A stretch of DNA of 64,000 bases from Flavobacteriales bacterium (GTDB lineage Bacteria > Bacteroidota > Bacteroidia > Flavobacteriales_E > Vicingaceae). The stretch's first letter is position 1. The number at the start of each line of letters is the position of its first letter. The stretch spans positions 26 through 64,025 of the forward strand of contig JABWCF010000015.1 of the NCBI GenBank assembly GCA_013359255.1. Direction: 5' to 3'. This document shows, piece by piece, positions 8,816 to 34,311 of the stretch. Under the pieces are notes generated by a model. It did no database searches. It was not told the DNA's origin and saw only the letters and a list, made by a program, of their open reading frames with translations. Position numbers and translations under genes: made by a program.

Positions 8816-8879
8816 CTTATCTATACTAAAAAGTAAGGATTGGGGAATGTTTATGGCGAGTATAGGTAAGTTACCACCA
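8816..8879 (+). other. left anchor of the cassette array (target half-site, crossover G8870|TT)
   Basis: GTTACCACCA at 8870 is the reverse complement of TGGTGGTAAC at 13423. An 11/12 inverted repeat (8816-8827 / 8859-8870) ends at the crossover G. Confidence 0.7.
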
Positions 8880-9094
8880 ATGGTATTAAAGACAGTGCAA
8901 AATGACTAACATTGGACACAATGTAACGGACAATTCAGTAATGAAACTTACGAGCAGACATAGTAACGGGCGACACGCAAGCCGACCAAAACAAGATTTA
9001 ATATTTGCTCCACCGCACGACAAAAAAATAAAAAAAGAAAAGGGACAACCCCCGCTAAATTTTTTGTCAGGGTTTTTGTGCCCCGCTTCGTTTA

Positions 9095-13139: not shown

Positions 13140-13195
13140 ATTAAATATCAAACCCTCACTTTTTTTGTCATACTTTTTGTGCCGACACACTTTTA

Positions 13196-13233: not shown

Positions 13234-13422
13234 TAAAGACAACCCTATAACAAAAAGATATGCCAAAAAGCAAACGCTCTTTGAAAAAATTCCTCGCTTC
13301 GAAAAAGTTAAATCTTTTCGACCGCTCATTGCCAACAGACAAAAAAGTGTTTCGACAAGGCAAAAAGCGAACAATAAAAACTATAAAAACACTATGAATA
13401 TAGCATTGCGGGACAGAACCAC

Positions 13423-13555
13423 TGGTGGTAACAGCACCTACCCAAAATTGGCGGTACAGTTGTTAAATCAAGCTATGTGCTTCAAAGTTTGTGCTTGGTT
13501 GACAGTGAAGTGCTTCAAAATCGCCACCTTCGGGTAGCTGCAAACCGTTGGCAGC
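13423..13555 (+). repeat. attC-like site B
   Basis: TGGTGGTAAC-A-GCACCTACCC...GGGTAGCTGC-AAACC-GTTGGCAGC. Confidence 0.85.
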
Positions 13556-13750
13556 AAGTGTATTAAGACAGACACGACAAACAAACGAGTGACAGAAACA
13601 GAAAAAAGTAAACCATTTTGACAGGTGACCAAAAACATAGAAACGATATTACAAACGGACAAGGAGTAAGCCGACACTCATTGCCAACCCTATATTTTTT
13701 ATTTTTTTCCCACCCGGATTTTTTAAAAACAAATTTAAGCCAGCACGCAA

Positions 13751-13812
13751 GTGGCACATTTGGCTTTGCCCCTACCCGCAAAGCCGACCCTTCGCAAAGC
13801 CAAAAGAGCCAC
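13751..13812. repeat. CACATT...AAAGAG hairpin motif (X3, leader of cassette 2)
   Basis: GTGGCACATTTGGCTTTGC...GCAAAGCCAAAAGAGCCAC. Confidence 0.65.
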
Positions 13813-13858
13813 TTATTATCAACGCTGATTTGTAAACAAAATTTACTTTATTGAATAT

Positions 13859-16687
13859 ATGATGAAGTATCTAGAATGGAATAATATCATATCGGCTTAT
13901 TTTTTCAATCCTGACAATGCAGGAAAGGATATTCATTTGTATCTAACCAAGAATGATATTATTGGTTTAGCGAGGCAAAATTTCAACGAAGAAACAGAAG
14001 ACGAAATTTGGACTGATTTTATCAATTCTATTAAACGAGGCATTCCGGGCTCAAACGGAAATGTGATTACAAAGGCAAAACACGCTCATTCCAAAAACAA
14101 TCTTATCGGCTTAAAAAAATCGGACGGAACATTTGCCACAATAGACGATGTTCCGGTATTATATCCACCTTACATTTCTTATTTGACTTTCTTAGTGCTA
14201 CCGTTAATTGAAAGTATTGATAACACTAATCTAAGAGCAAACAACTATTACGGCAGGCTTAATACTTTTTTACAAAGTAATCAAATAAATGAGAACATAG
14301 GAACAACCGATTTTAGCAACAATCAAATAAATAGTTTGTGGGAAGATTTGGCGAATTGGGCTAATATCAAAAAAAATGGTGATTTAGGTTTATTTAATGT
14401 AGTTCCCTTTTCAAATGCAAATTGGGTTTATGTTGGTAAAGTTTTTTCGCAATGTGTTTTACCGCCAAAATTTTTGAATCGTTTACCGGAACTATTTGAT
14501 TCTATTGGTTTAGTGCCGAACACGTTTTACGATGACAAGTTTTTACAAGATAAAATCAAAAACAGTAGAACAGATTTAATTCCGAAAAGCACGTTAGATT
14601 TTTTGAAAAAAGATGATGAGTTATCCAATTCAATTATTCAAACAATCCAACGTCAATACAAAAAATGGTCAGGCGAAACACACGAAGAAATTGAAGAAGG
14701 AACAAAAAAGAAAAGAAATTACACCGTTGCCCCCTTGTTTCTTCAATTTAAAGTAAACACAAACGATGAAGTTATTTCGTTCTCTTACAGAATGTATTCT
14801 TCAAATGATTATCCTGAAGATTTGAAATTTGGCGAACACGAAAACTTGTATGAAATCAACGGTTGGTCTAAAACACTACCCCTTGAATTTAACGAAGGAC
14901 TTGAACTGAAAGATAATTTCAACAAATGGATTGCAAAATTTCCAAATCGTGATGTGAGATTATTTGTAAGTGCAGGAACATTTCAGTTGAGTAATGATTT
15001 TTGGATTGAAACGGACTTTCTTTCAAAAACAGAACGAATGTATTTGCTATGCAAAAATGACAAACAAGAACTAATCAGAGATTGGGGTAAAACATTTAGC
15101 AACGGAAATTTTAAACAGGAAGATTTTGACGGCTTACCTGAAAACTATTCTTTGTTTTGGTTTCGTAACCCAACACAAGGTCTTACCGAAATTCCACTTC
15201 TTACACTCTATACCGAAAAACGAATTGAATTAGTTGGTGGTTTAAAAGTAAATTTCAGAACCTACTCAAATGACTTTTTACCGGAAGTTGAAATTGTAAA
15301 TTCAGACGGAAACGAAAAAGTGTATTTGCAATACAAAGACACAGACGAAAAAATATTTCTTTCTAAAAAGACATCGCTCAACAACCGTTGGCTATTGAGC
15401 GAAAAAACGGCAATAAATGCCGATTTTTATATTAAAGTTGAGGACGAAACTTTTTCAGGAAATGCACTTGTATACAATCTTGTTTCTTCTGACAATGCCG
15501 CTATCAAAGTTGATGAATCCAAATTGCCCAAAAGAGATTCCTTTGGAAGAAAAATCACAACTGATATGGAACAATATTGTTTAGGCAGCAATATCATAAA
15601 CCCAAACATTCAACGACAAGTCCCTTACACACATTTATTCCGTTCCATAAACACAGATACAGCCACACAAATAACAACAGCAATATTTAATCACCATTGC
15701 GGAAATAGACTTTGCGATTTTCTTTCATTAAAAGGCGTATTGACTACTGAAGAATTTTTCAGAGCATTTGAGTTTTACTATTCAAAAGAATTTACTGAAC
15801 AGCTGGTAAGTTCAAATTTCAATCTTACAAAATTGAAAAGAGCATCTTTAAATTTTTATGATTTTATCGGAATTCTTGATTATGATTATGAAACCAAAAA
15901 TATTGTGTTGAATCCTCCTCAATTAATCTACATACCTACAACAAAAGGAAGAAAAGTTTTGCTGATTGGTGCAAGAGATTCCGCATTGATTGAAACAATC
16001 ATAAAAACTGCACCAAAACACAATTTACAAGCAGAAATAACTAAACAATTTTCTTCCAATGAAAGATTGCTTTTACCCGATGTTATTACTTTAAAAGCAT
16101 TTCAACAATCTTCTGACAACTTTGGTGAAAAAAGCTTAGTAGCATTTGCAGATGAATTGCAGATAAAATTCAATGACAATAGCCTACCTCAAGTCGCATT
16201 CCTGAATTTTTCGGCAAGCATCACAGAATATGAGAGCTTATTACAACTTACAGATGAAAATGATTACGATTGGGCAAGATATAGTTTCAATCCTGAAACT
16301 TTAATGTTTGAGAAATGCGAGGAAAATTCAATTGATAAATCATTTTCATTACTTCAATACAAATTAAATGAATACACATACCAACACAAGCTATGGAAGC
16401 ATGGTAATTGTTATCAAATTGATATAAATTGGGGTAAATTTATTGCTTTAAAGCATTTTCAAAAAAACGTAATCTTGTTTGATCAAGCAAATAATAAAGT
16501 TGCTATACCCATAGAGCTTCCTTTACCAAGATTACTCGCAGAATCAATTATGTTGTTAAGTGGGTTTGCCCCTGACTTCAAAGTGATTGAAGATAAGAAA
16601 TATAGAATTTACGAAAATATCCCAAGTATTTTTACAACTAATTTATTCAGTAGGTTAGGTCAAACACCGATAAATACAACATTATGA
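13859..16687 (+). CDS. large hypothetical protein; putative Druantia partner (DruH-like)
   Basis: 942 aa with no recognisable catalytic motif; stop overlaps the start of a DruE-like helicase. The partner role is inferred from position and size. Confidence 0.55.
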   Translation: MMKYLEWNNIISAYFFNPDNAGKDIHLYLTKNDIIGLARQNFNEETEDEIWTDFINSIKRGIPGSNGNVITKAKHAHSKNNLIGLKKSDGTFATIDDVPVLYPPYISYLTFLVLPLIESIDNTNLRANNYYGRLNTFLQSNQINENIGTTDFSNNQINSLWEDLANWANIKKNGDLGLFNVVPFSNANWVYVGKVFSQCVLPPKFLNRLPELFDSIGLVPNTFYDDKFLQDKIKNSRTDLIPKSTLDFLKKDDELSNSIIQTIQRQYKKWSGETHEEIEEGTKKKRNYTVAPLFLQFKVNTNDEVISFSYRMYSSNDYPEDLKFGEHENLYEINGWSKTLPLEFNEGLELKDNFNKWIAKFPNRDVRLFVSAGTFQLSNDFWIETDFLSKTERMYLLCKNDKQELIRDWGKTFSNGNFKQEDFDGLPENYSLFWFRNPTQGLTEIPLLTLYTEKRIELVGGLKVNFRTYSNDFLPEVEIVNSDGNEKVYLQYKDTDEKIFLSKKTSLNNRWLLSEKTAINADFYIKVEDETFSGNALVYNLVSSDNAAIKVDESKLPKRDSFGRKITTDMEQYCLGSNIINPNIQRQVPYTHLFRSINTDTATQITTAIFNHHCGNRLCDFLSLKGVLTTEEFFRAFEFYYSKEFTEQLVSSNFNLTKLKRASLNFYDFIGILDYDYETKNIVLNPPQLIYIPTTKGRKVLLIGARDSALIETIIKTAPKHNLQAEITKQFSSNERLLLPDVITLKAFQQSSDNFGEKSLVAFADELQIKFNDNSLPQVAFLNFSASITEYESLLQLTDENDYDWARYSFNPETLMFEKCEENSIDKSFSLLQYKLNEYTYQHKLWKHGNCYQIDINWGKFIALKHFQKNVILFDQANNKVAIPIELPLPRLLAESIMLLSGFAPDFKVIEDKKYRIYENIPSIFTTNLFSRLGQTPINTTL

Positions 16688-19600
16688 AAGACCCCATAGG
16701 ATCGTTTGAAACAATTAAAGAGAATTTTATTCGCTATGTGAGAACAGCGTTCAGAACAAAGTTTAAAGGCGTTGAAAAAGAGCGATACGATTTGCTGAAT
16801 TACGACAGAGTTCTTTATCGTAAACCTTGGATTGAACCATTGCCCGACTATGTTTCAAGTGGAAAAAAAATAAACGACTTAACAGCTGAAGATTTAGGAA
16901 ATGCTTTGAACGAAGGAGAAATCGAAACATTCAAAGGACTTGTAAATACCGGACTTGTAGGGAATTTCCCTTTGCATTCTCACCAAGCGGAAATGTTGAA
17001 ACAAGCATTGCTTGGAAATAATTGTATAATCACTTCCGGAACAGGTTCAGGAAAAACAGAATCTTTTTTGCTTCCATTGTTCGCTCAACTTTCAAAAGAA
17101 CTTGCAAATTGGACAGCACCCAACCAACAATCTACAAGCATAAATACTTGGTGGCGTGAAAATGGTGGACTTTCTGCAAGGCAAATTGTCAATACTTCAA
17201 ATTTCACGTTAAGCAACGATGTAAGACAACGCAATCACGAAACACGAAAAGCCGGTGTAAGAGCATTAATTCTTTATCCAATGAACGCTTTGGTGGAAGA
17301 CCAAATGAGCCGTTTGCGTAAAGCGTTAGATTCTGACGACACAAGAAATTGGTTGAGCGAAAACACAAACGGAAATAAAATTTATTTTGGACGATACAAC
17401 GGAAGTTCACCTGTTGCAGGTGAGTTGAAGAAAATAAAAGATGACCGAACTTTTGCAATCAATACAAACAAAGTAAATCAACTCAAAGAACAGTTACAGC
17501 AAATTGAGACGGACTCAAACCGTGTTGCGCAATACATTCAACAAACAGGAAAAACAGGAAACGAAGCAAAAGATTTAAAATCATTTTTCCAACGCTTAGA
17601 CGGTGCAGAAATGAGAAGTCGTTTTGATATGCAAGTGGCACCACCGGACATTATGATTACAAATTACTCAATGTTGAGCATAATGTTAATGCGTGATATT
17701 GACAAAGGAATTTTTAATGAAACAAAACAATGGTTAGAAGAAAGCGAAAACAACATTTTTCACTTAATCATTGACGAGTTGCACTTATACAGAGGAACGC
17801 AAGGAACAGAAGTTGCATATTTGCTCAAACTTGTTCTTAATCGCTTAGGTTTAAATCCTAATCACCCACAATTGCGAATTCTTGCTTCAAGTGCTTCGTT
17901 GGAAGCAAAAGAAGAAACGAAAGAAGGACAGGAAAGCAAGCAGTTTTTGAAGGACTTTTTTGGAACAGAAAAACCGTTCAAAATTATTGAAGGAAAAAAT
18001 AATCCGATTACTGCGTTCCCTGAAAATGGAATAAAACTTCCAATAAATCCTTTCAAAGAAATTGCGAATAAATTTTCGGAAGTAAAAGGAAATATTACTG
18101 ACGTAAATTTCATTTCAACTTGTGAAGCAAGTGCAACACAACTTGAAACAGCGTTTAATTTATCACAAGACGGAAACGGAATTTCAAAATTAATTTCAGT
18201 AATAATCAATCCAAGCTTTCAATTAAAAGAACGTTTGTTTTCGCCTTGTCAAGATTACAAAGCAGTTTGTTCAACCCAAGCAAACGGTGATGATGATAAC
18301 GGAAAATATTTTGCTGAAACAATTTTTGAAAGAACATCCAATAAAGAAGATTTAGAAAATGCTTTGCGTGGTTTGTTGATTGTAAGAGCGATGTTAGACG
18401 AAAAAGAATTTGAAGACATTGCAAAAACAATTCCTGACGATAGGAAGTTACCACGTTTTAGATTTCACTATTTCTTTAGAAACATCGAAGGAATTTGGGC
18501 TTCTGTTAAGTCAGATGAAATTGACGAAGCATATTCAGACGAAGAAAGAACAGTTGGGAAATTATATTCTACCACACGTATAAATTCGGAAAATGGAAAC
18601 CGTGTTTTAGAATTGCTCTATTGTGATAATTGCGGAACAACCTTATTTGGTGGTAGCCGATTGGTAACAAGAAATGAATCAGGAAACAACTCTTTTGAAA
18701 TGCTTCCGATTAGTCCGAACATTGAAGGTATTCCTGAAAAAACGCCTGCAAAGTTGGTTGAAAGGCGAAGTTACCAAGAATACGCTGTATTTTGGGCTTG
18801 CGGAAATCAACAATACACGCCACACGATGCGGAAGCAGGTATACCGCAAGTTGGTTGGCGACAACCAACTATGAACGGTTTTAATCAAACTGATTTTCTT
18901 GCAGATTGGATTCCGGCTTCACTGAATTGTATTTCGGGCGACATTGATAATTCACATAACAAGGCGGAGGAAAAACCTGAACAATGGATAAAAGGATATT
19001 ATTTCATCATTACAAACAATTCAAATCGTGACATTGCTTTGCCTGATGCAAATGGAAACATTTCTACGATTGAAACACACAAAGCATTACCAAGCGTTTG
19101 TCCAAGCTGTGGCGTAAATCATCAAAAAAGACGACAAGATTGGAATAAAAATAAAACTTCTTCTATTCGTGGTTTTAGAACCGGTTTCGCTAAAACAACA
19201 CAAATGTTTGCAAAGGAATTGATGTATCAACTTCCGAGTAACGAAGCAGAAAGAAAATTAGTAGTGTTTTCCGATAGCAGAGAAGATGCGGCACAAATTG
19301 CAAACGGAATTGAACGCAATCACTTTTCTGATTTAATGCGTGAAGTTTTAGTCAAAGAATTGCATTCAAACTTGATGTTCCGTTTTCAAATTGTAGATGC
19401 TTTTGACAAAGGAAATACAGCAAGACAACAAGAGCTAAAAGAGCAATCGCAAACAATTTTTGATGAAATTGAATTCTTAGTTGAAAATTCCGCTTACACA
19501 GGAACAAACGCAAGCCGCATACGAGAAAAACAAGAAGCTGAAATAAAGTTGAACGAAATCCGTTCGCTGACTTTAAATGTAAGAAGTTTAGTTCACATCA

Positions 19601-22600
19601 CAAATTCATTAAATCTTGCACCACTCATTAAACACTTTGTTGGTTTAGGAATAAATCCAGGTGGTAATGACATTTCATTGCAAACAAGGTTATTGAACAA
19701 CAATTTTGTTCCTTGGTATGACCTTATTGATTTTACAAATTTTCAATGGGCTGCCGGTGCAAACCAAGATTACATTGACGCATTGAAAGAAGGTTCATTT
19801 GATGGACTCGCTACAATATTTTTCGGTTCGCTGTTTTATTCGTTTGAATCTTCCGCATTGGGTTATGTTTGTATAAATCCTGAATTACAGGTTATCACAG
19901 AGCAAGCAAAAACTGTTGCTTTAGCAAAAGATGATTTTTTGCAAATCGTAAATTCCACAATCCGGATTTTGGGTGATAAATACAAACACAACAAAGTTGA
20001 AGATGTAAGTCCATTCAACTTTACGCAATACAACGATTTTCCCGGGCAAGTGAAAAAATACATTCGTGCAGTTGAAACAAGGTATTCAAAAAATCAAAAC
20101 GAAATTGGCGATGCCGTTTTTAATACGCTTTCAACAAGTAGTTTGTTGAGAGGCGACACAGGCATTCAAATTGAAAACCTTTTTATCAAAGTAGCACGTT
20201 CAACGGATTCTATTTGGACAAGTCAAAGAGGAAGCAGACCACACTTGCATTTTAGCGGTGGAATTTGCACTCATTCTGTATCGGCACTGCAACATCAACC
20301 GGACAGAATTTGTGATGATGTTTGGAAAGAAAATTATCTTTCTTACAATGCCATTAAGCAACAACGTGAACCAATCCGTTTGCATTGCGAAGAACTCACC
20401 GGACAAACAGATGACCAATTTGAAAGACAAAGACATTTCAGAAATATCATTTTACCAGATGAAGGCAACAAACAAGTCAAAACAATCGACTTATTGAGCG
20501 TAACAACAACACTTGAAGTTGGAGTTGATATTGGTGCATTGCAAGCCGTGATGTTGGGTAATATGCCACCGCAACGTTTCAACTATCAACAAAGAGTTGG
20601 TCGTGCAGGACGTAGAGGACAAGCGTATTCCGTTATTTTGACATTTTGTAGAGGTAGAAGCCACGATGAGTTTTACTTTGCTAACCCCCAAAAAATTACA
20701 GGCGATGCCCCACCAACACCTTTCTTGACAATGGGACAAGAAAGGATTTTTAAACGTTTGCTTGCAAAAGAAATTTTTCGCAGAGCATACGTTGAAAAAG
20801 AGATTGACATTACTTCTGATGATAAATCAAGTGTTCACGGAGAATTTGGTTCAGTTGATAGTTGGACGATTTACAAACCTGAAATTTCTAATTGGATAAA
20901 TGAAAACAGAACTGTCATCGAACAAACAGTTGATGCATTACTAACGCCACAGCTAAAAGACAAAAAAGATGAATTTGTAAATTGGGTTGCAGATACAACA
21001 ACGCCAAATGGTTTAATTGAAAAAGCAGAAAGCATTATCAAGAATGAAGAAATTGCAAGTAATGACATTTCTGAAAAATTTGCCGAAGGCGGAATTTTGC
21101 CAATGTTTGGAATGCCGACCACAGTTAAAAACTTGTACCACGGTATTAACAGGAAACCAGAACCACTTTCAATTGACAGAGCACAAGCAATGGCAATTTA
21201 TGAATTTGCACCGGGAGCACAGAAAACAAAAGATAAAGCGATTCATCAAGTAATTGGTTTTACAAGCGATTTTATCAATGTTCATAATGGAATTAAAAAT
21301 GCTGACACAGCCAATCAACTTCCCTTTTCACTTAACCGTTGGTTTGTGCGTTGTAGGGCTTGCGGATTTTTTGAAACGTATTCAGAAGAACGAAAAGCAG
21401 AATTGGAGAGTCAAAGTCAATTTGATGTTTGTCCAAATTGTGGTGAAGAGAATCCGAATAAATATCAACCGCCATTTAAACTGAAATCGCCAAGAGCATA
21501 CAGAACAAATCTTTCAGCCGGAAGCGACACGAAAGATGATTCTGAATTTTTGCTTTCACGTCCGCCAATTTTTGCAGAGAAAACCGGTTCAGCAAACGTA
21601 GAAACAATAAGTAACGCTTCAATTTCTATTTCTGATAATGATGTTACTTGGCGTGTGAATACAAATTCTGATAAATTTTTTACAGGAAGATTATACAATA
21701 CAAATAATAAATTTCCTTTTAATCAAAGCGGATTTTGGTTTAACAATCAATGGTTGTTAAATGATTTAGCATTACCAACAAATGACAGCAATGGTCATTC
21801 AATGTTTGTTCAATCAAATCCAACAAGTTCTGATGAACTAATTGCATTAGCCAGCAATAAAAACACCGAAATTTTCCGAATTGCACCAACAAATGTTCCT
21901 TATGAACTTGACTTAAATATGTTTTTTAGCGAAACAGATTTGCCACACGTCAAAGCACAAAGTAACGGAGTGCGTTCCGGTTATTATTCCGCAGCATTTT
22001 TACTTCAAAGAATATTAGCAGACAAACTTGACGTTGACCCTACAGAAATTGAGATTGCGGATATTCCAGTTAAAGTTCTTGAAGACGGAAGAAGAATTGC
22101 TGAAATTATCTTGACTGATGAATTACCAAACGGTTCGGGCTTCGTAAGATATTTATACAACAATCTTGTAAACATACTTTCAGAATCCATAAATCCAAGC
22201 AATTCAGTTAGTTATTTAGGAAAAATTCATTCGGAAACTCATCAAGGAAAATGTGCTGATGCTTGTTATGATTGTTTAAAAGTGTTCCGGAATATGAATT
22301 ATCATAGTTTGCTTGATTGGCGTTTAGGTTTATCAATGCTTCGTGTAATGAATGATTCAACTTTTGTTTGCGGGGCTGACGGAAATTTCAACTTTGTTGA
22401 ATTGCAGAATTGGATTGCATTTGCAACGGAATTAAGAAATGCTTTTGCTCAAAGTTTTGGTTTCTCAAATACAGCCGAGATAAATGATTTGCCAATTATC
22501 AAATTTGGAAGAAATCAAAGAAACGTGATAATGATTGTTCACCCATTTTGGAATATGAGAAATTTCACGGAAGCAAATTGGTTGGCGGAAATTTACAATG

Positions 22601-22707
22601 AAATAAAAGTACATACAGAGAGTAACGGTGGGAAAATTAGCATAATTGACACCTTTAACTTGCATCGCAGACCGGGTTGGTGTTATGAAAAATTAATTGA
22701 GAGATGA
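16684..22707 (+). CDS. giant SF2 DEAD/DEAH-box helicase with Zn motifs and C-terminal DUF1998-like region (DruE-like)
   Basis: SGTGSGKT, YPMNALVEDQ, TNYSML, DELH, SAS, TTTLEVGVDIG, QRVGRAGR; CxxC pairs; CADACYDCL. Confidence 0.85.
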   Translation: MKDPIGSFETIKENFIRYVRTAFRTKFKGVEKERYDLLNYDRVLYRKPWIEPLPDYVSSGKKINDLTAEDLGNALNEGEIETFKGLVNTGLVGNFPLHSHQAEMLKQALLGNNCIITSGTGSGKTESFLLPLFAQLSKELANWTAPNQQSTSINTWWRENGGLSARQIVNTSNFTLSNDVRQRNHETRKAGVRALILYPMNALVEDQMSRLRKALDSDDTRNWLSENTNGNKIYFGRYNGSSPVAGELKKIKDDRTFAINTNKVNQLKEQLQQIETDSNRVAQYIQQTGKTGNEAKDLKSFFQRLDGAEMRSRFDMQVAPPDIMITNYSMLSIMLMRDIDKGIFNETKQWLEESENNIFHLIIDELHLYRGTQGTEVAYLLKLVLNRLGLNPNHPQLRILASSASLEAKEETKEGQESKQFLKDFFGTEKPFKIIEGKNNPITAFPENGIKLPINPFKEIANKFSEVKGNITDVNFISTCEASATQLETAFNLSQDGNGISKLISVIINPSFQLKERLFSPCQDYKAVCSTQANGDDDNGKYFAETIFERTSNKEDLENALRGLLIVRAMLDEKEFEDIAKTIPDDRKLPRFRFHYFFRNIEGIWASVKSDEIDEAYSDEERTVGKLYSTTRINSENGNRVLELLYCDNCGTTLFGGSRLVTRNESGNNSFEMLPISPNIEGIPEKTPAKLVERRSYQEYAVFWACGNQQYTPHDAEAGIPQVGWRQPTMNGFNQTDFLADWIPASLNCISGDIDNSHNKAEEKPEQWIKGYYFIITNNSNRDIALPDANGNISTIETHKALPSVCPSCGVNHQKRRQDWNKNKTSSIRGFRTGFAKTTQMFAKELMYQLPSNEAERKLVVFSDSREDAAQIANGIERNHFSDLMREVLVKELHSNLMFRFQIVDAFDKGNTARQQELKEQSQTIFDEIEFLVENSAYTGTNASRIREKQEAEIKLNEIRSLTLNVRSLVHITNSLNLAPLIKHFVGLGINPGGNDISLQTRLLNNNFVPWYDLIDFTNFQWAAGANQDYIDALKEGSFDGLATIFFGSLFYSFESSALGYVCINPELQVITEQAKTVALAKDDFLQIVNSTIRILGDKYKHNKVEDVSPFNFTQYNDFPGQVKKYIRAVETRYSKNQNEIGDAVFNTLSTSSLLRGDTGIQIENLFIKVARSTDSIWTSQRGSRPHLHFSGGICTHSVSALQHQPDRICDDVWKENYLSYNAIKQQREPIRLHCEELTGQTDDQFERQRHFRNIILPDEGNKQVKTIDLLSVTTTLEVGVDIGALQAVMLGNMPPQRFNYQQRVGRAGRRGQAYSVILTFCRGRSHDEFYFANPQKITGDAPPTPFLTMGQERIFKRLLAKEIFRRAYVEKEIDITSDDKSSVHGEFGSVDSWTIYKPEISNWINENRTVIEQTVDALLTPQLKDKKDEFVNWVADTTTPNGLIEKAESIIKNEEIASNDISEKFAEGGILPMFGMPTTVKNLYHGINRKPEPLSIDRAQAMAIYEFAPGAQKTKDKAIHQVIGFTSDFINVHNGIKNADTANQLPFSLNRWFVRCRACGFFETYSEERKAELESQSQFDVCPNCGEENPNKYQPPFKLKSPRAYRTNLSAGSDTKDDSEFLLSRPPIFAEKTGSANVETISNASISISDNDVTWRVNTNSDKFFTGRLYNTNNKFPFNQSGFWFNNQWLLNDLALPTNDSNGHSMFVQSNPTSSDELIALASNKNTEIFRIAPTNVPYELDLNMFFSETDLPHVKAQSNGVRSGYYSAAFLLQRILADKLDVDPTEIEIADIPVKVLEDGRRIAEIILTDELPNGSGFVRYLYNNLVNILSESINPSNSVSYLGKIHSETHQGKCADACYDCLKVFRNMNYHSLLDWRLGLSMLRVMNDSTFVCGADGNFNFVELQNWIAFATELRNAFAQSFGFSNTAEINDLPIIKFGRNQRNVIMIVHPFWNMRNFTEANWLAEIYNEIKVHTESNGGKISIIDTFNLHRRPGWCYEKLIER

Positions 22708-23777
22708 TGAATAAAATTGGAGAAACGAATTTTAAGGAAATCAAACGTATTTCGCCAAGCCAATTTTATTCAATGAAAAATTGTGCTTACAAATCATTAT
22801 TGGCAGAAGCGTTTGACAAGAAGCCGTTACTTCCACTTTCGCCAAATGCGTATTTCGGCACAGTTTTGCACAAAATGCTTGAGCTGATTGCAAAAGGAAT
22901 TGTGAAAAGTGAAGATGATTTTAATGCGGAATTTGACAAGCAAGTGAAAGCACTTGAAGAAGATTTAAAACAAAAAGGCTTTGGTTTTTTTGTTCCGCTA
23001 AAAGTTAAGTTACGAAATTTTGGGTTGAAGAAAATTCAACTAAAAAAGCATTTGCGAAGCGAATCCGAAAAAATAACAAGTTCAGGTAACATCAAATTTC
23101 ATTCTGAAAAATGGTTTGAATCAAACGACAAATTGATTGGCGGAAAAGTTGATTTAGTGATTGAAAACGGAAACGAAATTGAAATAATTGATTTTAAAAC
23201 CGGAGCAATCACACAAGATTGTTTAGATGATGAAGGCGAAATTTATTCAGATGTAAAGAATGAATACAAAGAACAACTTAAACTTTATGCTTACTTGTAT
23301 TTTGAAAACACAAACAAGTTTCCAACGGACTTGAGTTTGGTGGATTTAGCTAAACAGAAATTTCCGGTTGAGTTTTCAGAAGAAGAATGTAAATCCCTTT
23401 TTGATGAAGCGAAAAGCCTTTTAAAATCTACTAATGATAGCATAAAAACAAAATCATTTTCAGCAAATCCAAAACAAGAAAATTGCAAGTATTGTCTTTA
23501 CAGACCAGCTTGTTCTTTCTTTCATAAGAAACTTGAAACAGATTTTTCTTTCAACGATGTGTTGGGTGAAATTAAAGACGTGAAGAAATTTCAGAATGGA
23601 AATGTGAGTTTATTTTTACAAAATGGAAATATGAATTTAACCATAAAAAATTTTTCTGAGGAAGAATTTGATGAACTAAACAGAAATAAGAACAAACAAA
23701 TTAGAATTTACAATGTAAGAAATGAAGCAAAAGAATTTGTTTATTCTGCTACTGACACGACAATAATTTATGAGTAA
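22704..23777 (+). CDS. RecB/AddB-like PD-(D/E)XK nuclease with a probable 4Fe-4S cluster
   Basis: ISPSQ...NCAYK, GKVD...IDFKTG, QLKLYA, CKYCLYRPAC. Confidence 0.85.
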   Translation: MMNKIGETNFKEIKRISPSQFYSMKNCAYKSLLAEAFDKKPLLPLSPNAYFGTVLHKMLELIAKGIVKSEDDFNAEFDKQVKALEEDLKQKGFGFFVPLKVKLRNFGLKKIQLKKHLRSESEKITSSGNIKFHSEKWFESNDKLIGGKVDLVIENGNEIEIIDFKTGAITQDCLDDEGEIYSDVKNEYKEQLKLYAYLYFENTNKFPTDLSLVDLAKQKFPVEFSEEECKSLFDEAKSLLKSTNDSIKTKSFSANPKQENCKYCLYRPACSFFHKKLETDFSFNDVLGEIKDVKKFQNGNVSLFLQNGNMNLTIKNFSEEEFDELNRNKNKQIRIYNVRNEAKEFVYSATDTTIIYE

Positions 23778-24897
23778 GAATAAAGAACATAAAATTCCGA
23801 TACTTTCTTTTTTTTCCGGAGGAGGATTTATGGATATGGGTTTTGAGCAAGCCGGATTTGAAGTAATTTGGACAAATGAATTTGATGAAATTTTTGCTAA
23901 ACTTCACGCTGCTGGTGTGACTTCCTGGAGAAAATCTAAAGGCAATGGAATTAAAGCGGAAATTTTTAATACTAAATCAATCGTTGAAGTAACATCAAAA
24001 GAAATTGTTTCTGAAGCTTTTCCAAATGGTAAGCCGAAGCATTTTGGAATGATTGGAGGCCCGCCTTGTCAGGACTTTAGTATGAATGGTTCATTAAAAG
24101 GTTTTGGTGGAGAAAGAGGAAAACTTACAATTGTTTACTTTGATAAAATCTTGGAATTAAAACCAACGTTTTTCGTTATGGAAAATGTAACCGGTTTAAC
24201 AAAAAGAAAAGACACAAAAGAATATTTACAAACGCTGTTGAAGCGAGTTGAAAAAGAATACTACGTTGACCACGAAAAACTTAATTCGTTGAATTATGGT
24301 GTACCGCAACACAGAGAACGTGTATTTTTTATAGGTATTAGAAAAGATTGTTTGAACAAACAAGCCATTGAACAAGCTCTGTTTGGTAAATGGTTCCCGT
24401 TTCCTGTAAACGAGAAATATCAGGATTCTGCGACAAAGTATAATTGGGGGAAACAAGTTTCTTTTGGGAACAAATTGAAAAAACCGGAAGATGTTCCTTT
24501 TGAATTGTGTGTTGAAAGCTGTTTAGTTCCAAATAGTAAAATTGATGTAATTCCGAATGCGAATGAGGTATTTACCTTATACAAGCCTATATCTGAATTA
24601 AATAAAATAGCTGAAGGTGAAACGAATAGACCATCATTTAAACGACTTCATCGTTTTAAATACAGTCCGACAGCTTGCTACGGAAATAACGAAGTTCATT
24701 TGCACCCATATTTAAATAGACGTTTATCTGCGAGGGAGGCTCTAAGAATACAAGGTGTGCCTGATGAATATATACTTCCGTCAGAAATTTCATTATCGAA
24801 GAAATTTAAAATGATTGGTAATGGTGTTCCTGTTCCATTAGCAAAAGCAGTAGCAGAATCATTAAAAGACTTTTTATTTACAAATGAAATCATTTAA
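23770..24897 (+). CDS. DNA (cytosine-5)-methyltransferase
   Basis: FSGGG, GGPPCQDFS, ENV, QHRERVF, GNGVP motifs. Confidence 0.93.
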   Translation: MSKNKEHKIPILSFFSGGGFMDMGFEQAGFEVIWTNEFDEIFAKLHAAGVTSWRKSKGNGIKAEIFNTKSIVEVTSKEIVSEAFPNGKPKHFGMIGGPPCQDFSMNGSLKGFGGERGKLTIVYFDKILELKPTFFVMENVTGLTKRKDTKEYLQTLLKRVEKEYYVDHEKLNSLNYGVPQHRERVFFIGIRKDCLNKQAIEQALFGKWFPFPVNEKYQDSATKYNWGKQVSFGNKLKKPEDVPFELCVESCLVPNSKIDVIPNANEVFTLYKPISELNKIAEGETNRPSFKRLHRFKYSPTACYGNNEVHLHPYLNRRLSAREALRIQGVPDEYILPSEISLSKKFKMIGNGVPVPLAKAVAESLKDFLFTNEII

Positions 24898-24909
24898 ATC
24901 CCTCAATAT

Positions 24910-24977
24910 TTTGCAAGCACATTGCCGAAGCTCCACAACCCTAGCACAGACCAAAGCTTTGTCAAAGAGCTTGCAAA
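24910..24977. repeat. CACATT...AAAGAG hairpin motif (X4, trailer of cassette 2)
   Basis: TTGCAAGCACATTG...CAAAGAGCTTGCAA. Confidence 0.65.
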
Positions 24978-25136
24978 GCCAACGCAAGAAAAATTGTTTT
25001 TAAAAAATGTCCCGACCCATCAAAAAATAAAAAACGCTATGCACAACCCGACTCAGATAGACAAAAAAGCAAACGGACAATGACACTGAAACTCAACACT
25101 GACAATGGTTTACAAAGACGAACAGACAGTACACCA

Positions 25137-25272
25137 GCTGCCAACAGCCGTTTTGCAAAAGCGGGGTTTTCGTGCTTATATGACAGTGAAGTGCTAAATT
25201 CAAGCTTTGTGCATCTAATGAAGTTTAGTGCTGAAAATCCCCGCCTTCGCAAAGCGGCAAAACGTTACCGCC
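25137..25272 (+). repeat. attC-like site C
   Basis: GCTGCCAAC-A-GCCGTTTTGCAAAAGCGGGG...CCCCGCCTTCGCAAAGCGGC-AAAAC-GTTACCGCC. Confidence 0.88.
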
Positions 25273-25334
25273 AATGCTAAAAAAACAACGACAGTGAACA
25301 AAATGAACGACAGAGATAAAATGCCGACCGCACA

Positions 25335-25395
25335 TTCAAGCACATTTGGTTTTTACCGACACGCAAAGCCAAACCAAAAACCAAAAGAGCTTGAA
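25335..25395. repeat. CACATT...AAAGAG hairpin motif (X5, leader of cassette 3)
   Basis: TTCAAGCACATTTGGTTTTT...AAAAACCAAAAGAGCTTGAA. Confidence 0.65.
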
Positions 25396-25422
25396 TTTTG
25401 CCAACACGCAGACATAAAAATA

Positions 25423-25430
25423 TAAATTTG
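25423..25430 (+). promoter_or_regulatory. Bacteroidota -7 box inside cassette 3
   Basis: TAAATTTG ends 4 nt before the ATG at 25435. Confidence 0.45.
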
Positions 25431-25434
25431 AAGA

Positions 25435-26415
25435 ATGAAAGAAAACAAAATATTCTATGAAACCGACCTTGGGAAACTACTCCTTACAGACTCTTACAAA
25501 GAGTTAAAGAATGGTTCATTGAAAAAATATAAGGGCAAGATAAATCTAATTATTACCTCACCACCGTTTCCATTAAACAACAAGAAAAAATATGGAAACC
25601 TTCAAGGTGAAGAATACAAAGAGTGGTTTGTTAGTCTTGCTCCTATCTTTGAAGAATTATTAGCTGATGATGGTTCACTTGTTATTGAAATCGGGAATGC
25701 TTGGGAATCTGAACGACCTGTACAGTCACTTTTACATTTAGAATGTTTACTTGGGCTTGTTCAAAATTCCAATCTAAGATTAATACAGGAATTTATATGT
25801 TACAATCCTTCAAAACTTCCTTCCCCAGCTCAATGGGTAACAGTTAATCGTATTAGGACAGTAGACAGCTATACTCATATATGGTGGCTTGCCAAATCAG
25901 ACTACCCAAAGGCTGATAACACAAAAGTTTTGCGACCTTACAGCAAGAGTATGAAACAACTTCTCAAAAATCAAAAATATAACTCAGGAAAACGACCTTC
26001 GGAACACATCATTTCAGAAAATGGATTTCTGAAAGATAATGGAGGAAGCATTGCTCATAATTTTTTTGAAATGGAGCCAATTGATGAAAATAGAGAGGTT
26101 AGACTGCCTCACAGTGTTTTGAGCTTTTCAAATACACATTCAAACGATTACTATCTGAAAGCTTGTAGAAAGAATGATATAATTCCTCACCCTGCAAGAA
26201 TGAATCAAGGAATTGTTAGTTTTTTTATCAATTATTTGACTGATGAAAAAGACTTAGTTTTAGACCCTTTCGCAGGTAGTAATACAACCGGGGCAACAGC
26301 TGAAAAGCTCAACAGAAAATGGTTGGCAATGGAGATTGACCGAGAATTTGCAGACCAATCAATTTACAGATTTGAAGATAAAGAACTTAATGCCGAACTT
26401 AAAATCCACTTTTAA
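25435..26415 (+). CDS. beta-class amino-MTase, M.PvuII-like (probably N4-cytosine)
   Basis: TSPPF catalytic motif before the DPFAGS SAM motif; NPSKLPSP, KDNGGS and HPAR segments as I recall them in M.PvuII. Confidence 0.85.
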   Translation: MKENKIFYETDLGKLLLTDSYKELKNGSLKKYKGKINLIITSPPFPLNNKKKYGNLQGEEYKEWFVSLAPIFEELLADDGSLVIEIGNAWESERPVQSLLHLECLLGLVQNSNLRLIQEFICYNPSKLPSPAQWVTVNRIRTVDSYTHIWWLAKSDYPKADNTKVLRPYSKSMKQLLKNQKYNSGKRPSEHIISENGFLKDNGGSIAHNFFEMEPIDENREVRLPHSVLSFSNTHSNDYYLKACRKNDIIPHPARMNQGIVSFFINYLTDEKDLVLDPFAGSNTTGATAEKLNRKWLAMEIDREFADQSIYRFEDKELNAELKIHF

Positions 26416-28421
26416 TGCTTGACGTAATAAAAAAAATAACAGACATTGACTTCTTTAAAGAAGGACAGAATGAAGACCTTTTTGTGGGTAGACCTTACTC
26501 GATAAACTACAATAAAGCTAATCTACTTATTTCAGATTTTTGGAAACATAAAGTAAAAGGAATACCACAAGGTTCTTTCTTGTTGGCATTTTACGACAAT
26601 CCATTTGAAGAAAATATTCAAGAAGCTTTACTCCTTCGAGTGTTAAACCCTTCTTCACTACCCACTGACAATAATGTCATTTCGTCAATGATTGAGTATT
26701 ACAAAGACAATCTTAATACATCAGGCAAAAAGAGTGAACTAGACGATTTTACTAGATATGAATTTAGTTTTTCGGGTTTGGAATGTAGAATCTTAGGCGC
26801 ATTCTACAAGGAGGGTAATTCTTTTGAATTTGGCGCTGACGTAGAAAATTTTTATTCGGCTCACAACTACAAAGTTTTTAAAGCAACCTCGAAAATTTTA
26901 GAGCTTATTGTAAATCAAAGAGACAAAGATTTAGTAGCAGGTGGAGAGAATGAATTTCCCATAGGTACAGTTCGTTATAGCTCGACTAGACGTTTCTATG
27001 CTACTGATGATTCCGTTAAAAGTGTTAAGGTATTTATTAATCCAGGTGATATGCTTGGAAAGCGAACCGCTCTTTTCGGTATGACTAGAACAGGTAAGTC
27101 CAACTCTGTTAAGAAAATAATTGAAGCTTCTGTTGAAATATCTAGAAAATCAAAATATAAAACGTTAAGCACCACTTCAAGTCCAACTGACAACCTTATG
27201 GAAGCAATTGATAAGGAATCAGGTGCACCGAAATTTCCTGTTGGTCAAATTATTTTTGATATAAATGGTGAATACGCCAATGCTAATATGCAGGATAAGG
27301 GTACTGCAATATTTGAATTGTACTCTGACATTACTACAAGATTTTCGACCTTGCCCAAAACGGATTTCAAAATTATGAAGGTTAACTTCTATAATGATTT
27401 AGAAGCAGGATTCGAGCTTGTTCGATCTCACTTATTACAAAGTTCGGGTAACTATATAGAAAGTTTTTGTGCTGTTGACTTTACTCCACCCGAGAATTAT
27501 GATTTTTTCAGCTCTGAGGGCACTCGTCACGATAGATTAAAAGCTGCTTATTTCTGCTGCCTTTATAAAGCCAATATTCCAGTTCCAAAGAATTTCAAAG
27601 TTAAGTTTCGTGGCAATGACATACTAAATAAGTTGGTAAAAGAAGATGGCTCAATAAAACCAGACAACGGAATTTCACTTGAAGATGCTTACAATTGGTT
27701 CAAAGCTGTTGCAGATAATTATAATACTCACGAATACTTTAGTAAATATAAAGCTCAAAAGGGTCACGAATGGGCAGACGAAGATCTAAAAGCAGTACTA
27801 GTATTTCTTTCAAGAAAAAAAGACGGTAGAGTTGTAGATGGATATGTTAAACTTAGAAGCTTAAAGGAACTACATACAGAGACAATCGACAAACCTTTTG
27901 ATGCTGAGATAATTGATGAGTTAAGAAAAGGTAAGATTGTCATTATTGATTTGTCTCAGGGAAATCCTGAAATTCAACAACTATATTCAGAGCGAATTTG
28001 TAAGAAGATATTCAATGATTCTATGAATAGATTCATTTCAAACTCACCCAACAATTTCATCCAATTCTATTTTGAAGAGGCTCATAATTTGTTTCCTAAA
28101 AAGGACGACAAAGATTTAAGTCAAATATATAACCGAATTGCCAAGGAAGGTGCAAAATTGAATCTTGGGATGATTTACGCAACGCAAGAAGTTAGCTCTA
28201 TAAGTTCTAACATACTAAAAAACACTCAAAATTGGTTTATTGCACACTTAAACAACGAAGATGAAACTAGGGAACTTAAAAAGTATTACGACTTTGAAGA
28301 TTTTACAGAATCACTAGTTCGTTTTAGTGCTAAAAATGACAAAGGTTTTGTGAGAATGAAAACATATTCAAACCCGTTTGTTGTACCAGTCCAAATAGAC
28401 CAATTTTTAGCAAACAAGTAA
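26415..28421 (+). CDS. herA: HerA/FtsK-family ATPase (DUF87)
   Basis: GMTRTGKS Walker A, FDINGEY, FEEAHN Walker B, ATQ; N-terminal HAS-barrel-like region. Confidence 0.85.
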   Translation: MLDVIKKITDIDFFKEGQNEDLFVGRPYSINYNKANLLISDFWKHKVKGIPQGSFLLAFYDNPFEENIQEALLLRVLNPSSLPTDNNVISSMIEYYKDNLNTSGKKSELDDFTRYEFSFSGLECRILGAFYKEGNSFEFGADVENFYSAHNYKVFKATSKILELIVNQRDKDLVAGGENEFPIGTVRYSSTRRFYATDDSVKSVKVFINPGDMLGKRTALFGMTRTGKSNSVKKIIEASVEISRKSKYKTLSTTSSPTDNLMEAIDKESGAPKFPVGQIIFDINGEYANANMQDKGTAIFELYSDITTRFSTLPKTDFKIMKVNFYNDLEAGFELVRSHLLQSSGNYIESFCAVDFTPPENYDFFSSEGTRHDRLKAAYFCCLYKANIPVPKNFKVKFRGNDILNKLVKEDGSIKPDNGISLEDAYNWFKAVADNYNTHEYFSKYKAQKGHEWADEDLKAVLVFLSRKKDGRVVDGYVKLRSLKELHTETIDKPFDAEIIDELRKGKIVIIDLSQGNPEIQQLYSERICKKIFNDSMNRFISNSPNNFIQFYFEEAHNLFPKKDDKDLSQIYNRIAKEGAKLNLGMIYATQEVSSISSNILKNTQNWFIAHLNNEDETRELKKYYDFEDFTESLVRFSAKNDKGFVRMKTYSNPFVVPVQIDQFLANK

Positions 28422-28424
28422 GGT

Positions 28425-29759
28425 ATGTCATACAACAAAACAGGAAACAGGCCATTTGAATTTGCTAGTAAGAGCAACCATATTCATATTATCAAAGACC
28501 CAGAAGTTCAGAAGTTTTTAAGCCAACACGAACTTCCCAAAGAGGGTGATGAAATTTCTCTATTTGACCATTATTTGGTGGATATAAATTATGATGTTGC
28601 AGATTCTGTAGAATTCATTATAGCAGTAGATGGAGGTGATACAACAGTTCCAGTCAAATCAAAATTCCCTTCTTCAACAATAACCTTTTTTCAGTTTGGG
28701 GCTAACTTATTGAAAATTTCAGACCTTAAAGAATTGAGGGAGCAACCTTTCATTTCTCCACAATCAATCTCAAAACTAAAAGAATTACAGCGGATAAAAT
28801 TTACCTTACCGACCAAGAACATTGGCTTAATTGATGAAAATGGTAAACGAGCAACACTGACTTATTCTGTCAGAAAAGCCCTTTATGAATTTTTCAAACA
28901 ACACGATTTCCTATCAACTTTGAAATGGTTTCTTTTTGAAGAGTACAAGAAAAATCCAAAGTCGGAAAGAGAACTTGCAAGCCACCCAAATAATTCTGCT
29001 ACAAAGAAAGTGGTTATTCAAAGAGATAAAATCAATTCCGAATATAAAATACCACACGCAGACGGTGATTTGTTTTTGACAGATATTTTTAGGCTTCACG
29101 AAGTAGTGGATGAAGATTTAGGTGCAGGAGGTATTGTTGGCTATTTAAGAAATTTGATTGAACATTTCATTCTGATTGACACCATTAGAGGATTGTATAG
29201 AGTTAAGAAAGATACCTTAAAAGAGGTGTTATTTGTAAAAGATGGCCCATTAGGTTTCTTTGGACAAACTGCGAATATGCACGAGCCTATGAGAGAATTG
29301 TTGAATCACCTTAATTCTGAATTAAATATCTTTTTAGCAGGAATAGAAAAATCAGGTCCTTTTGTAGAGCACGCATTGGAAATTAAAGATAAAATTAAGC
29401 AAGGACAGGCGTATTTACTTTCAAACAAGCACATTTACAAGTATATAAAGCCGGGTGACTCTGACAATCCAGAAGCGTATGGACGTTCCTCATATTATGG
29501 CAGCAAAGTAATTTTTAAGTCCAGAGATGAAAGAATTTACGTGGTGACTATTCCTACTGAGAAAAGTGAAGTAGTTCTTAATCCTATCAAGTCGGACTTC
29601 AAGCACATTGACATCATAATGAAATACATTGAACGACTAAAAAGTGATATGTATGATAATTCTCTTTTACCGATTGCACTTGCAAACAAACTTGTTTCAC
29701 TTTCAGACCATCCAAGCTCTGTTTTACTTGAAAAGTTTGCTAAACACAATATAAAGTAG
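28425..29759 (+). CDS. nurA: NurA-family nuclease
   Basis: IAVDGG, VKDGPL, GIEKSG motifs; directly downstream of HerA. Confidence 0.75.
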   Translation: MSYNKTGNRPFEFASKSNHIHIIKDPEVQKFLSQHELPKEGDEISLFDHYLVDINYDVADSVEFIIAVDGGDTTVPVKSKFPSSTITFFQFGANLLKISDLKELREQPFISPQSISKLKELQRIKFTLPTKNIGLIDENGKRATLTYSVRKALYEFFKQHDFLSTLKWFLFEEYKKNPKSERELASHPNNSATKKVVIQRDKINSEYKIPHADGDLFLTDIFRLHEVVDEDLGAGGIVGYLRNLIEHFILIDTIRGLYRVKKDTLKEVLFVKDGPLGFFGQTANMHEPMRELLNHLNSELNIFLAGIEKSGPFVEHALEIKDKIKQGQAYLLSNKHIYKYIKPGDSDNPEAYGRSSYYGSKVIFKSRDERIYVVTIPTEKSEVVLNPIKSDFKHIDIIMKYIERLKSDMYDNSLLPIALANKLVSLSDHPSSVLLEKFAKHNIK

Positions 29760-29787
29760 ATTATGAAAATGCTAATGCTTCACAGCC

Positions 29788-29844
29788 ACACACATTGCCA
29801 AGTCGCTCAAGCCGACACGCAAGCCAAAACTTGGCAAAGAGTGT
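29788..29844. repeat. CACATT...AAAGAG hairpin motif (X6, trailer of cassette 3)
   Basis: ACACACATTGCCAAGT...ACTTGGCAAAGAGTGT. Confidence 0.65.
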
Positions 29845-29897
29845 GTCTGTCCAACTGCGCAACCGACAGACAAACGGACGAAGAAAAAGAAGCACTA

Positions 29898-34309: not shown

Positions 34310-34311
34310 AT
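34181..34311 (+). repeat. attC-like site F
   Basis: ATCACATAAC-A-GCCGTTTTGCGTCAGGCGGG...CCCGCCCGACCGCAAAGCCGC-AAACC-G|AT. Confidence 0.85.

Follow-up and report, generated by a model that had tools for sequence, protein, structure and literature searches.

The question raised by this locus is whether a block of four overlapping genes spanning 11.7 kb can be a single recombination cassette, and what kind of system such a cassette would carry. The block lies in a 64,000-nucleotide stretch (the window) of contig JABWCF010000015.1 of a Flavobacteriales bacterium, contig C19 of a 2.9-Mb, 34-contig genome, with a GC content of ~35%. The DnaG of this genome shares 96% identity with the protein of a ‘Flavobacteriales bacterium’ assembly, compared with 48–59% for other Bacteroidota. 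We consider it likely that the block is one integron-style cassette carrying a complete anti-phage operon of the Druantia family, made up of a DruF-DruL fusion, DruE, DruK and DruM; this judgement takes in both the mobility and the defence mechanism proposed below. An earlier note on the window had described four open reading frames (ORFs), their sizes, their domains and their overlapping start and stop codons, and the ORF list, Pfam searches and motif inspection bear out that description.

Boundaries of the cassette

Seven imperfect repeats of ~140 nt lie on the + strand of the window (Table 1). When aligned, they share invariant AAC...GTT boxes and a stem of 20 pairs, 12 of which show compensatory changes (RNAalifold). 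The covariance model built from six of the window sites (CM R1) recovered the seventh, together with 25 further sites on other contigs (32 in the genome). The model was trained on this window, where its matches score 88–139 bits, and it also gave 28 matches in four other genomes outside its training. An Rfam scan of the window returned no family at the gathering score; Rfam is without an attC family.

The Druantia block is enclosed by two of these attC-like sites, and the limits proposed for it earlier, 13548 and 25264, are the bases beside the two G↓TT crossovers (the arrow marks the crossover). The 5′ end of the cassette reads G↓TTGGCAGC and is fully complementary to the R″ box in the cassette's own attC: GTTGGCAGC is the reverse complement of GCTGCCAAC at nine of nine bases, which bears out the matched pair of cores of the earlier note. 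Along the array, 9–10 of 9–10 bases match between core and own attC in cassettes 0, A (the Druantia cassette), B, C, D and E. For the Druantia attC, folding gives −37.9 kcal/mol when the site is joined to the cassette's own 5′ end in a circle and −27.8 kcal/mol in the array; the R box pairs only in the circular form, where the hairpin is continuous. The self-match is the decisive feature, being the mark that a circular cassette classically leaves after recombining at G↓TT.

Within 13558–25133, a covariance-model scan run without filters found no attC-like site (best E ~1), inverted-repeat scans of the block returned only two chassis hairpins and weak in-gene repeats, and the overlapping genes leave no room for an internal attC. 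Other attC spacings, apparently of 5.5–7.4 kb, occur in the same genome.

The two hairpins, one leading and one trailing the cargo (Table 1), belong to a family composed of a 6-nt stem, CACATT...AAAGAG and the complementary stem. By strict criteria the genome holds 14 copies, each sharing the strand of an attC that lies 100–350 nt away; besides the two hairpins of the Druantia cassette, the family occurs at 13191–13240, 25335–25395 and 29785–29845 in the window and on contigs C2 and C18. The hairpins flank the cargo of large cassettes exactly where homology to the non-cassette copies of the operon stops, and a footprint of cassette genesis, an insulator or terminator and a second recombination site are candidates for their role.

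Table 1. Features of the Druantia cassette and of the array around it (positions in the window; CM, covariance model; an arrow marks the crossover).
Feature	Position	Strand	5′ end	Own R″ box	Remarks
Druantia cassette (cassette A)	13548..25264	+	GTTGGCAGC	GCTGCCAAC	11,717 bp; begins with the TT behind one crossover G and runs up to and including the next crossover G
attC-like site of preceding cassette	13421..13557	+			CM R1 126 bits, E 4.5e-29; crossover G13547↓TT is the left boundary
5′ core GTTGGCAGC	13547..13555	+			forms the R′ box of the cassette attC after circularization
Leader hairpin, CACATT...AAAGAG family	13749..13814	+			21-nt arms, 90% complementary; 45 nt 5′ of the first ATG
druF-druL fusion gene	13859..16687	+			942 aa; DruF module ~1–600, DruL module ~615–942
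druE	16684..22707	+			2007 aa; YprA-family superfamily 2 (SF2) helicase, Zn-binding motifs, MZB/DUF1998 domain
druK	22704..23777	+			357 aa; Cas4/AddB-type Fe-S PD-(D/E)XK nuclease
druM	23770..24897	+			375 aa; C5-cytosine DNA methyltransferase, all catalytic motifs
Trailer hairpin, CACATT...AAAGAG family	24910..24977	+			23-nt arms, 83% complementary; 13 nt 3′ of the druM stop
Cassette's own attC-like site	25134..25274	+			R″ GCTGCCAAC at 25137–25145; crossover G25264↓TT; CM R1 138.6 bits, E 3.6e-32
Repeats of ~140 nt (start positions)	13421, 25134, 29895, 33095, 34179, 35509, 36544	+			
Start of array	8868..8880				G8870↓TTACCACCA
Cassette 0	starts G8870		GTTACCACCA	TGGTGGTAAC	4.7 kb
Cassette B			GTTACCGCC	GGCGGTAAC	
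Cassette C			GTTGTGCGT	ACGCACAAC	
Cassette D			GTTATGTGAT	ATCACATAAC	
Three-gene cassette	25265..30027				methyltransferase-HerA operon
N4/N6 methyltransferase gene	25435..26415				
McrBC cassette	30092..33090				
ORF-free stretch	34310..34487				~178 bp
Fic/DOC-family gene	34683..35477	−			

The same cassette in other genomes

Comparison by blastn found the cassette in a Bacteroidales metagenome-assembled genome (MAG; L005, 93.6% DNA identity, homology over 13540–25266), in a Pedobacter flavus isolate (L015, 94.1%, homology from 13547) and in a Ferruginibacter MAG (L014, 92.3%, homology from 13547 until the contig ends). The homology starts no more than 8 nt from the crossover, and at exactly the crossover base in two of the three genomes (L014 and L015), and to the left of the shared GTTGGCAGC all four genomes are unrelated. 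The left neighbour is the 140-nt attC in the window, a short attC (~60 nt) of another cassette in L005, and in L014 and L015 a site with a TTTCG...CGAAA palindrome near integrase genes. At the downstream end, an attC occurs at the matching offset in both L005 and L015, with conserved R″/R′ boxes and inner stems that differ with compensation. The order in P. flavus is tRNA-Pro, tyrosine recombinase, palindrome site, Druantia cassette and four more attC sites, which puts the cassette in the first position of a five-attC array, where integrons insert new arrivals.

Because the crossover boundaries are shared behind different left neighbours in four genomes, the comparison indicates that the 11.7-kb unit has moved as a whole; together with the bounding attC sites and the empty internal scan, this sustains the earlier claim of one cassette. 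Non-cassette loci, by contrast with the packaged copies, share homology from ATG to stop only, and no attC of this family was found around them. The operon thus occurs both free and packaged, the packaged form being confined to one recent lineage, because the distant Druantia loci are without attC sites.

A unit of this size might also be a fossil, assembled or captured once between two attC sites, too big to excise and spread through arrays, integrative and conjugative elements or islands. Cassette recovery in Vibrio assays falls with size, with zero recovery at a 4-kb attC spacing (bioRxiv 10.64898/2026.03.17.712381), tRNA genes and island-type integrases adjoin the L005, L014 and L015 loci, and the operon is also found outside cassettes. 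A fossil is nevertheless hard to reconcile with left neighbours that differ in all four genomes and homology that begins within 8 nt of the crossover, with a self-matching core still intact at 9/9 bases, or with the other long attC spacings in the genome. Moreover, the cassette of L014 and L015 lies directly against a site with a palindrome, similar to the one that follows the recombinase in the window's own genome; a newly integrated cassette would be expected there, and we regard the fossil explanation as improbable.

Recombinase and integron membership

In the proposed scheme, excision and integration would be performed by the Xer-like tyrosine recombinase found beside such arrays, and the array of the window would be served in trans, because no recombinase adjoins it. 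The window's own genome has no match above the cut-off of TIGR02249, the integron-integrase model (265 bits); its best candidate, an Xer-like recombinase at a contig edge (C31:213–1070, a 389-aa ORF), scores 117+92 bits, and the recombinases adjoining the L005 and L015 cassettes, to which it is 44–49% identical, score 168–188 bits. Upstream of the C31 recombinase lie tRNA-Arg and tRNA-Pro, and downstream lies TTTCGTTAGCGAAA...AAG↓TTAGTGGCAAGTG, after which the contig ends (C31:1–1705). The TTTCGTTAGCGAAA palindrome followed by G↓TTAGTGGCAAGTG looks like an attI-like site plus the leader of a first cassette, and the layout of tRNA-Pro, recombinase and palindrome is common to C31 and P. flavus.

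The array of the window is CALIN-like (cluster of attC sites lacking integron-integrases), because it starts behind a housekeeping short-chain dehydrogenase/reductase (SDR) gene without a nearby recombinase. It shares with integrons and CALINs the attC-type sites (imperfect palindromes having AAC...GTT boxes and stems that covary), the G↓TT crossover, the match of each 5′ end to its own attC, co-oriented cassettes, several arrays in the genome and a defence cargo. It differs in the 11.7-kb, four-gene cassette, in an associated recombinase that appears to lack the IntI-specific domain, in the hairpins bracketing the cargo and in belonging to a phylum nearly without integron reports. Of the features that define an integron, the attC structure and the circular permutation at G↓TT were both found; an IntI with the IntI-specific domain was not, nor do the attC sites keep to spacings of <4 kb and cassettes of ~2 kb or less. 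The array appears to work like an integron; strict membership is not established, as it fails on the integrase.

IntegronFinder clusters attC sites <4 kb apart, the largest known cassette being ~2 kb (PMC4889954), and IntegronFinder 2 lists only Salinibacter among Bacteroidetes. Darracq et al. state that integron defence systems ‘never exceed 2 components’, with BREX and CRISPR-Cas absent, and count Bacteroidota as a clade previously without integrons found (bioRxiv 10.1101/2024.07.02.601686); we found no integron-like arrays in core Bacteroidota in the literature. An 11.7-kb, four-gene cassette with kept boundaries is an outlier compared with published integrons. We therefore raise, as a tentative proposal towards which we do not yet lean, that core Bacteroidota (Flavobacteriales, Sphingobacteriales, Chitinophagales and Bacteroidales) share an undescribed integron analogue, with an Xer-like recombinase without the IntI-specific domain and no practical ceiling at 2–4 kb, through which whole defence operons of up to 11.7 kb would be exchanged between orders in a standard chassis. 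That chassis may consist of G↓TT, an A-rich spacer, the CACATT...AAAGAG hairpin, the cargo, a second hairpin, a spacer and the attC.

Genes of the operon

All four genes lie on the + strand, with start/stop overlaps of 4, 4 and 8 nt (ORF list); inspection by eye upstream of druFL revealed no clean TAnnTTTG, the Bacteroidota −33/−7 promoter. The 942-aa protein, simply a hypothetical in the earlier note, has no Pfam match, and searches with three subdomains at E ≤ 10 gave nothing significant. It is instead a DruF-DruL fusion, because the PADLOC-DB models DruF4 (3.3e-72) and DruL4 (3.5e-49) match adjacent parts of it, residues 2–591 and 617–932, respectively.

DruE matches DruE2 (1925 bits) better than DruE4 (1717 bits), both over its full length (PADLOC-DB), which upholds the view that this is a Druantia-type system centred on DruE; the DrmA and DpdJ models match it only weakly. 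Pfam finds DEAD, Helicase_C and MZB/DUF1998 domains, and the motifs include GSGKT (121–125), DELH (364), QRVGRAGRRG, five CxxC pairs and the MZB cysteines C1857/1861/1864/1896. The helicase had been thought to be without a recognizable nuclease motif, and a motif search of its 2007 residues agreed, finding no HKD/PLD (phospholipase D) motif (HxK(x)4D). A Vsr-like or other nuclease domain at the C terminus was also considered; a Pfam search gave none. The PDB chain 9wae_A, a 1970-aa ‘Helicase’, and six sister entries align with DruE over the full length (1e-220), and the DruF-DruL profile matched none of the partner chains of the 9wae entries. Similarity to the type III DruE is low (298 bits; PDB 9tu7, 2e-32).

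These domains might also belong to a DNA-repair or replication-restart module, with no part in defence, in which a YprA/MrfA-like helicase and a nuclease are joined by a housekeeping Dcm-like methyltransferase; YprA/MrfA helicases do act in repair with a nuclease partner (PMC12458937). The match of DruE to YprA itself (PDB 6znp) is weak, though, at 35 bits compared with 1700–1900 bits over the full length of the Druantia models. This difference, a patchy distribution (8/401 genomes of the phylum), recent cross-order transfer at 92–94% DNA identity and array neighbours that are McrBC and other restriction-like cassettes leave a repair module with very little probability.

The 357-aa protein had been regarded as an extra nuclease, a description that falls away, as it is already PADLOC's DruK (2.5e-25; PDDEXK_1, Cas4-like, 2.6e-21 in Pfam). 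Its Fe-S pattern is formed by Cys27 and C261xxC264x5C270, and C27, H56, D150, D163, K165, C261, C264 and C270 are invariant across 15 homologues of 25–98% identity. The 375-aa protein matches the DruM2 model (PDLC00030, 9.9e-153; DNA_methylase, 1.1e-56 in Pfam), and its FSGGG, PPC100Q, ENV, QHRER and GNGVP motifs are all intact. The separate nuclease and the 5-methylcytosine (m5C) methyltransferase recognized earlier are, accordingly, both intact and coupled to DruE. Among the four proteins, PADLOC-DB gave no DruG match at E ≤ 0.01 and no DruH match, and the DruE3 scores are weak.

Placement among the Druantia types

Druantia of any type has a DruE with an SF2 core and a C-terminal DUF1998/MZB domain, and both are present here. 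In the PADLOC paper, type IV is DruE+DruF+DruL, lacking DruM (and DruG); the paper reports 168 instances in 11 phyla, with type IV in many phyla and type II confined to Proteobacteria (Payne et al. 2021, PMC8565338). The present locus resembles type IV in its DruE, DruF and DruL core, the fused protein lying immediately upstream of druE, in the full-length DruE4 match and in the absence of DruG; it differs in the fusion itself, in the conserved DruK and coupled DruM2-type methyltransferase after DruE and in a DruE that scores slightly better on DruE2.

Type II was reportedly described by Doron et al. in 2018 as DruM-DruF-DruG-DruE. The likeness to it lies in the cytosine methylase DruM, in DruF and in a type-II-kind DruE without a nuclease motif; the difference is that DruG was not found, DruL (fused to DruF) standing in its place, and that there is an additional Cas4-like nuclease and the methyltransferase comes last. 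Bell et al. 2025 group types I and II as ‘Type IV CoCoNuT’, and find only an inactivated nuclease domain in the DruE of both (PMC12458937).

Type III is the only Druantia type with a worked-out mechanism, that of a DruE helicase-nuclease with an exonuclease partner (bioRxiv 10.64898/2026.05.13.724313), and the locus shares with it a large YprA-family helicase and a nuclease activity on DNA. The type III DruE, however, has an active PLD nuclease in cis, its partner is the exonuclease DruH and it has no methyltransferase, whereas here neither DruH nor an active PLD nuclease in DruE was found and the nuclease is a separate Cas4-like protein. In DISARM and ARMADA, too, a DNA methyltransferase accompanies a helicase of the YprA family, much as in restriction-modification, but the partners are DrmB/C/D/E, a PglX-like N6 methyltransferase and BrxHII.

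By these comparisons, the gene set is a type IV core plus DruK and a type-II-like DruM, fitting neither published definition exactly; we place it, as a variant without a name, between types II and IV of PADLOC, a superset of type IV. What is new is the combination; the parts are all catalogued in PADLOC-DB, where DruK exists as three models. In the literature searched we found no published description of DruK or of a named subtype with this gene set. To call the architecture undescribed, as the earlier note did, is too strong: the combination fits neither type II nor type IV, but each component has a PADLOC-DB model, and the gene order is common in Bacteroidota.

Conservation across Bacteroidota

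We compared 18 related Bacteroidota loci (23–92% identity), 11 of them close and seven distant. The close loci come from Bacteroidales, Chitinophaga, Sphingobacterium, Niabella, Prevotellaceae, Pseudopedobacter, Chryseobacterium, Tannerellaceae, Bacteroidaceae, Ferruginibacter and Pedobacter; nine are complete and two are interrupted at contig ends, and eight of the nine keep the order DruFL-DruE-DruK-DruM. The distant loci come from a 401-genome sample of the phylum, eight genomes of which have a homologue, and six of the seven have the order DruF-DruL-DruE-DruK-DruM, with DruF and DruL fused or split, at 23–58% identity. In one distant locus (L020) no DruM match lay within the sequence fetched. 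DruM is present in 15 of the 16 loci with sufficient flank, always in the last position, at identities (27–99.7%) that vary independently of DruE.

The fused protein itself falls into at least 120 clusters (at 90% identity) that are 61–92% identical to the query, ~930–950 aa long and annotated ‘hypothetical’. Taking fused and split forms together, the DruF/DruL family has 924 clusters (at 50% identity), with fused forms down to 25% identity and split forms of ~680 aa (DruF) and ~330 aa (DruL). Because the order recurs in close and distant loci, the five modules form a conserved Bacteroidota system without a published name; the four-gene order to which the earlier note drew attention does recur, and is not a one-off.

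In two non-cassette operon copies (L008 and L011), a very-short-patch repair (Vsr) gene lies 3′ of the methyltransferase gene. The methyltransferase differs in these copies, and there is an extra gap of ~570 bp between druK and druM. A Vsr gene after druM is as would be expected for an active m5C methyltransferase.

Structure and variability of DruF-DruL

Confident AlphaFold2 models of the whole DruF-DruL protein (predicted local distance difference test score, pLDDT, 90.6; predicted template modelling score, pTM, 0.88) and of the DruL module alone (pLDDT 90.5, pTM 0.86) were obtained; the layout is a helical N-domain (1–270), a beta-rich middle (273–600) and the alpha/beta DruL module (614–942). 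Single-sequence and profile searches of the PDB returned nothing significant, two Foldseek searches of the PDB with the models gave Ig-like sandwiches and LAGLIDADG-like folds as best matches (E 0.04–0.05, template modelling score <0.2), and neither an AAA+/McrB-like nor a nuclease fold was seen in the models. Neither the fold searches nor the sequence searches supported the idea, taken from Bell et al., of an inactivated, McrB-like homologue of CnuB.

At the DNA level, the cassette is 97–100% identical to that of P. flavus outside two stretches, one covering the end of DruF and all of DruL (15280–16768, 68–84%) and the other the DruE C terminus (22153–22738, 85–89%). DruL is thus a module that evolves fast or is exchanged, and it may co-vary with the DruE C terminus; the pattern hints that modules have been swapped, or that selection has favoured diversity, where DruL and DruE possibly meet. 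The divergence would fit a specificity or sensor role for DruL.

Proposed mechanism

We propose that DruM would methylate a cytosine motif in the host DNA and so mark it as self. DruE would load on unmodified or structurally aberrant invading DNA and unwind it, and DruK, as a Cas4/AddB-like Fe-S exonuclease, would degrade the exposed strands, replacing the PLD nuclease that the type III DruE carries in cis. DruF-DruL, which has no recognizable enzymatic fold, could be an adaptor or sensor, with DruL as its variable part. The scheme is drawn from the helicase-nuclease logic of type III, from the inactivated nuclease in the DruE of types I and II and from type I Druantia, which is reported (cited in bioRxiv 10.64898/2026.05.12.722862) to modify host DNA for self/non-self discrimination.

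The main competing explanation is that the system senses DNA structure or ends and that DruM is accessory or orphan-like, for example as a shield against other restriction systems or in epigenetic regulation, rather than a self-marker. The type III mechanism does not depend on methylation, and every type is built on DruE as its conserved core; the identity of DruM varies independently of DruE, and L008 and L011 have a different methyltransferase beyond an extra gap. On the other hand, DruM is retained in nearly every locus and always last, overlaps druK by 8 nt in the window, and has parallels in the reported use of host modification by type I and in the pairing of the DISARM YprA-helicase with methyltransferases. 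On balance, we think an accessory DruM rather unlikely, and prefer the self-marking role.

Several points weigh against our preferred reading of a complete and mobile self-marking Druantia cassette. The sequence would suit a methylation-independent mode that senses DNA structure, as type III does, just as well; one complete locus (L013) is without DruK, and the system may thus be able to do without the nuclease; the role proposed for DruF and DruL, which have no fold or family match, is a guess; and we found no published test of PADLOC Druantia type IV in the literature. With regard to mobility, two of the three comparison genomes are MAGs, the array of the window has no recombinase beside it and the P. 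flavus copy of the recombinase has an in-frame stop. The candidate recombinases reach 168–209 bits compared with the cut-off of 265, in two stretches that skip model positions ~177–253, the probable place of the IntI-specific domain. Efficient excision of 11.7 kb is not a given, because recovery in Vibrio drops with size.

Neighbouring cassettes

The Druantia cassette lies in a defence context, with an McrBC cassette and a methyltransferase-HerA operon in neighbouring cassettes (Table 1). The array starts 116 nt after the SDR gene, and its first core matches the R″ box of the attC at 13421. Cassette 0 encodes a protein with FG-GAP repeats sorted by the type IX secretion system and a methyltransferase, with no obvious defence gene. 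The three-gene cassette encodes an N6_N4 methyltransferase, a HerA-like DUF87 ATPase (668 aa) and a 444-aa protein without a Pfam match, and looks like a restriction-like system without a classical endonuclease. McrBC restricts modified cytosine, and shares the array with DruM and the N4/N6 methyltransferase; the methylated motifs must escape McrBC, or not all cassettes are expressed. The ORF-free stretch has long nested inverted repeats and lies between an attC ending in G↓AT (not G↓TT) and G↓TTAGCGGT, a core that matches the R″ box of the attC at 35509. The Fic/DOC-family gene is oriented opposite to all other cassette genes of the array.

Significance

The cassette is the stronger and more surprising aspect of these findings, and rests on comparative evidence rather than on a single locus. 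The view in the integron field is that recombination constraints keep cassettes small and integron-borne defences to one or two genes, and the 4-kb clustering rule of IntegronFinder carries the small-cassette assumption into every survey. An 11.7-kb, four-gene cassette with exact crossovers in four genomes from different taxonomic orders contradicts both views. Large-cassette arrays of Bacteroidota would be systematically missed, because they have no IntI match and their attC spacing exceeds 4 kb. If the integron analogue suggested above is real, no functional integron-type cassette larger than the Druantia cassette would be known, and the bracketing hairpins would be footprints of the process that creates cassettes.

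For the Druantia family, the locus provides a conserved, compact and naturally portable version of types IV and II with a separate nuclease and methyltransferase. It allows us to ask whether Druantia outside type III follows restriction-modification logic, and its naturally variable module, DruL with the DruE C terminus, is a candidate specificity determinant.

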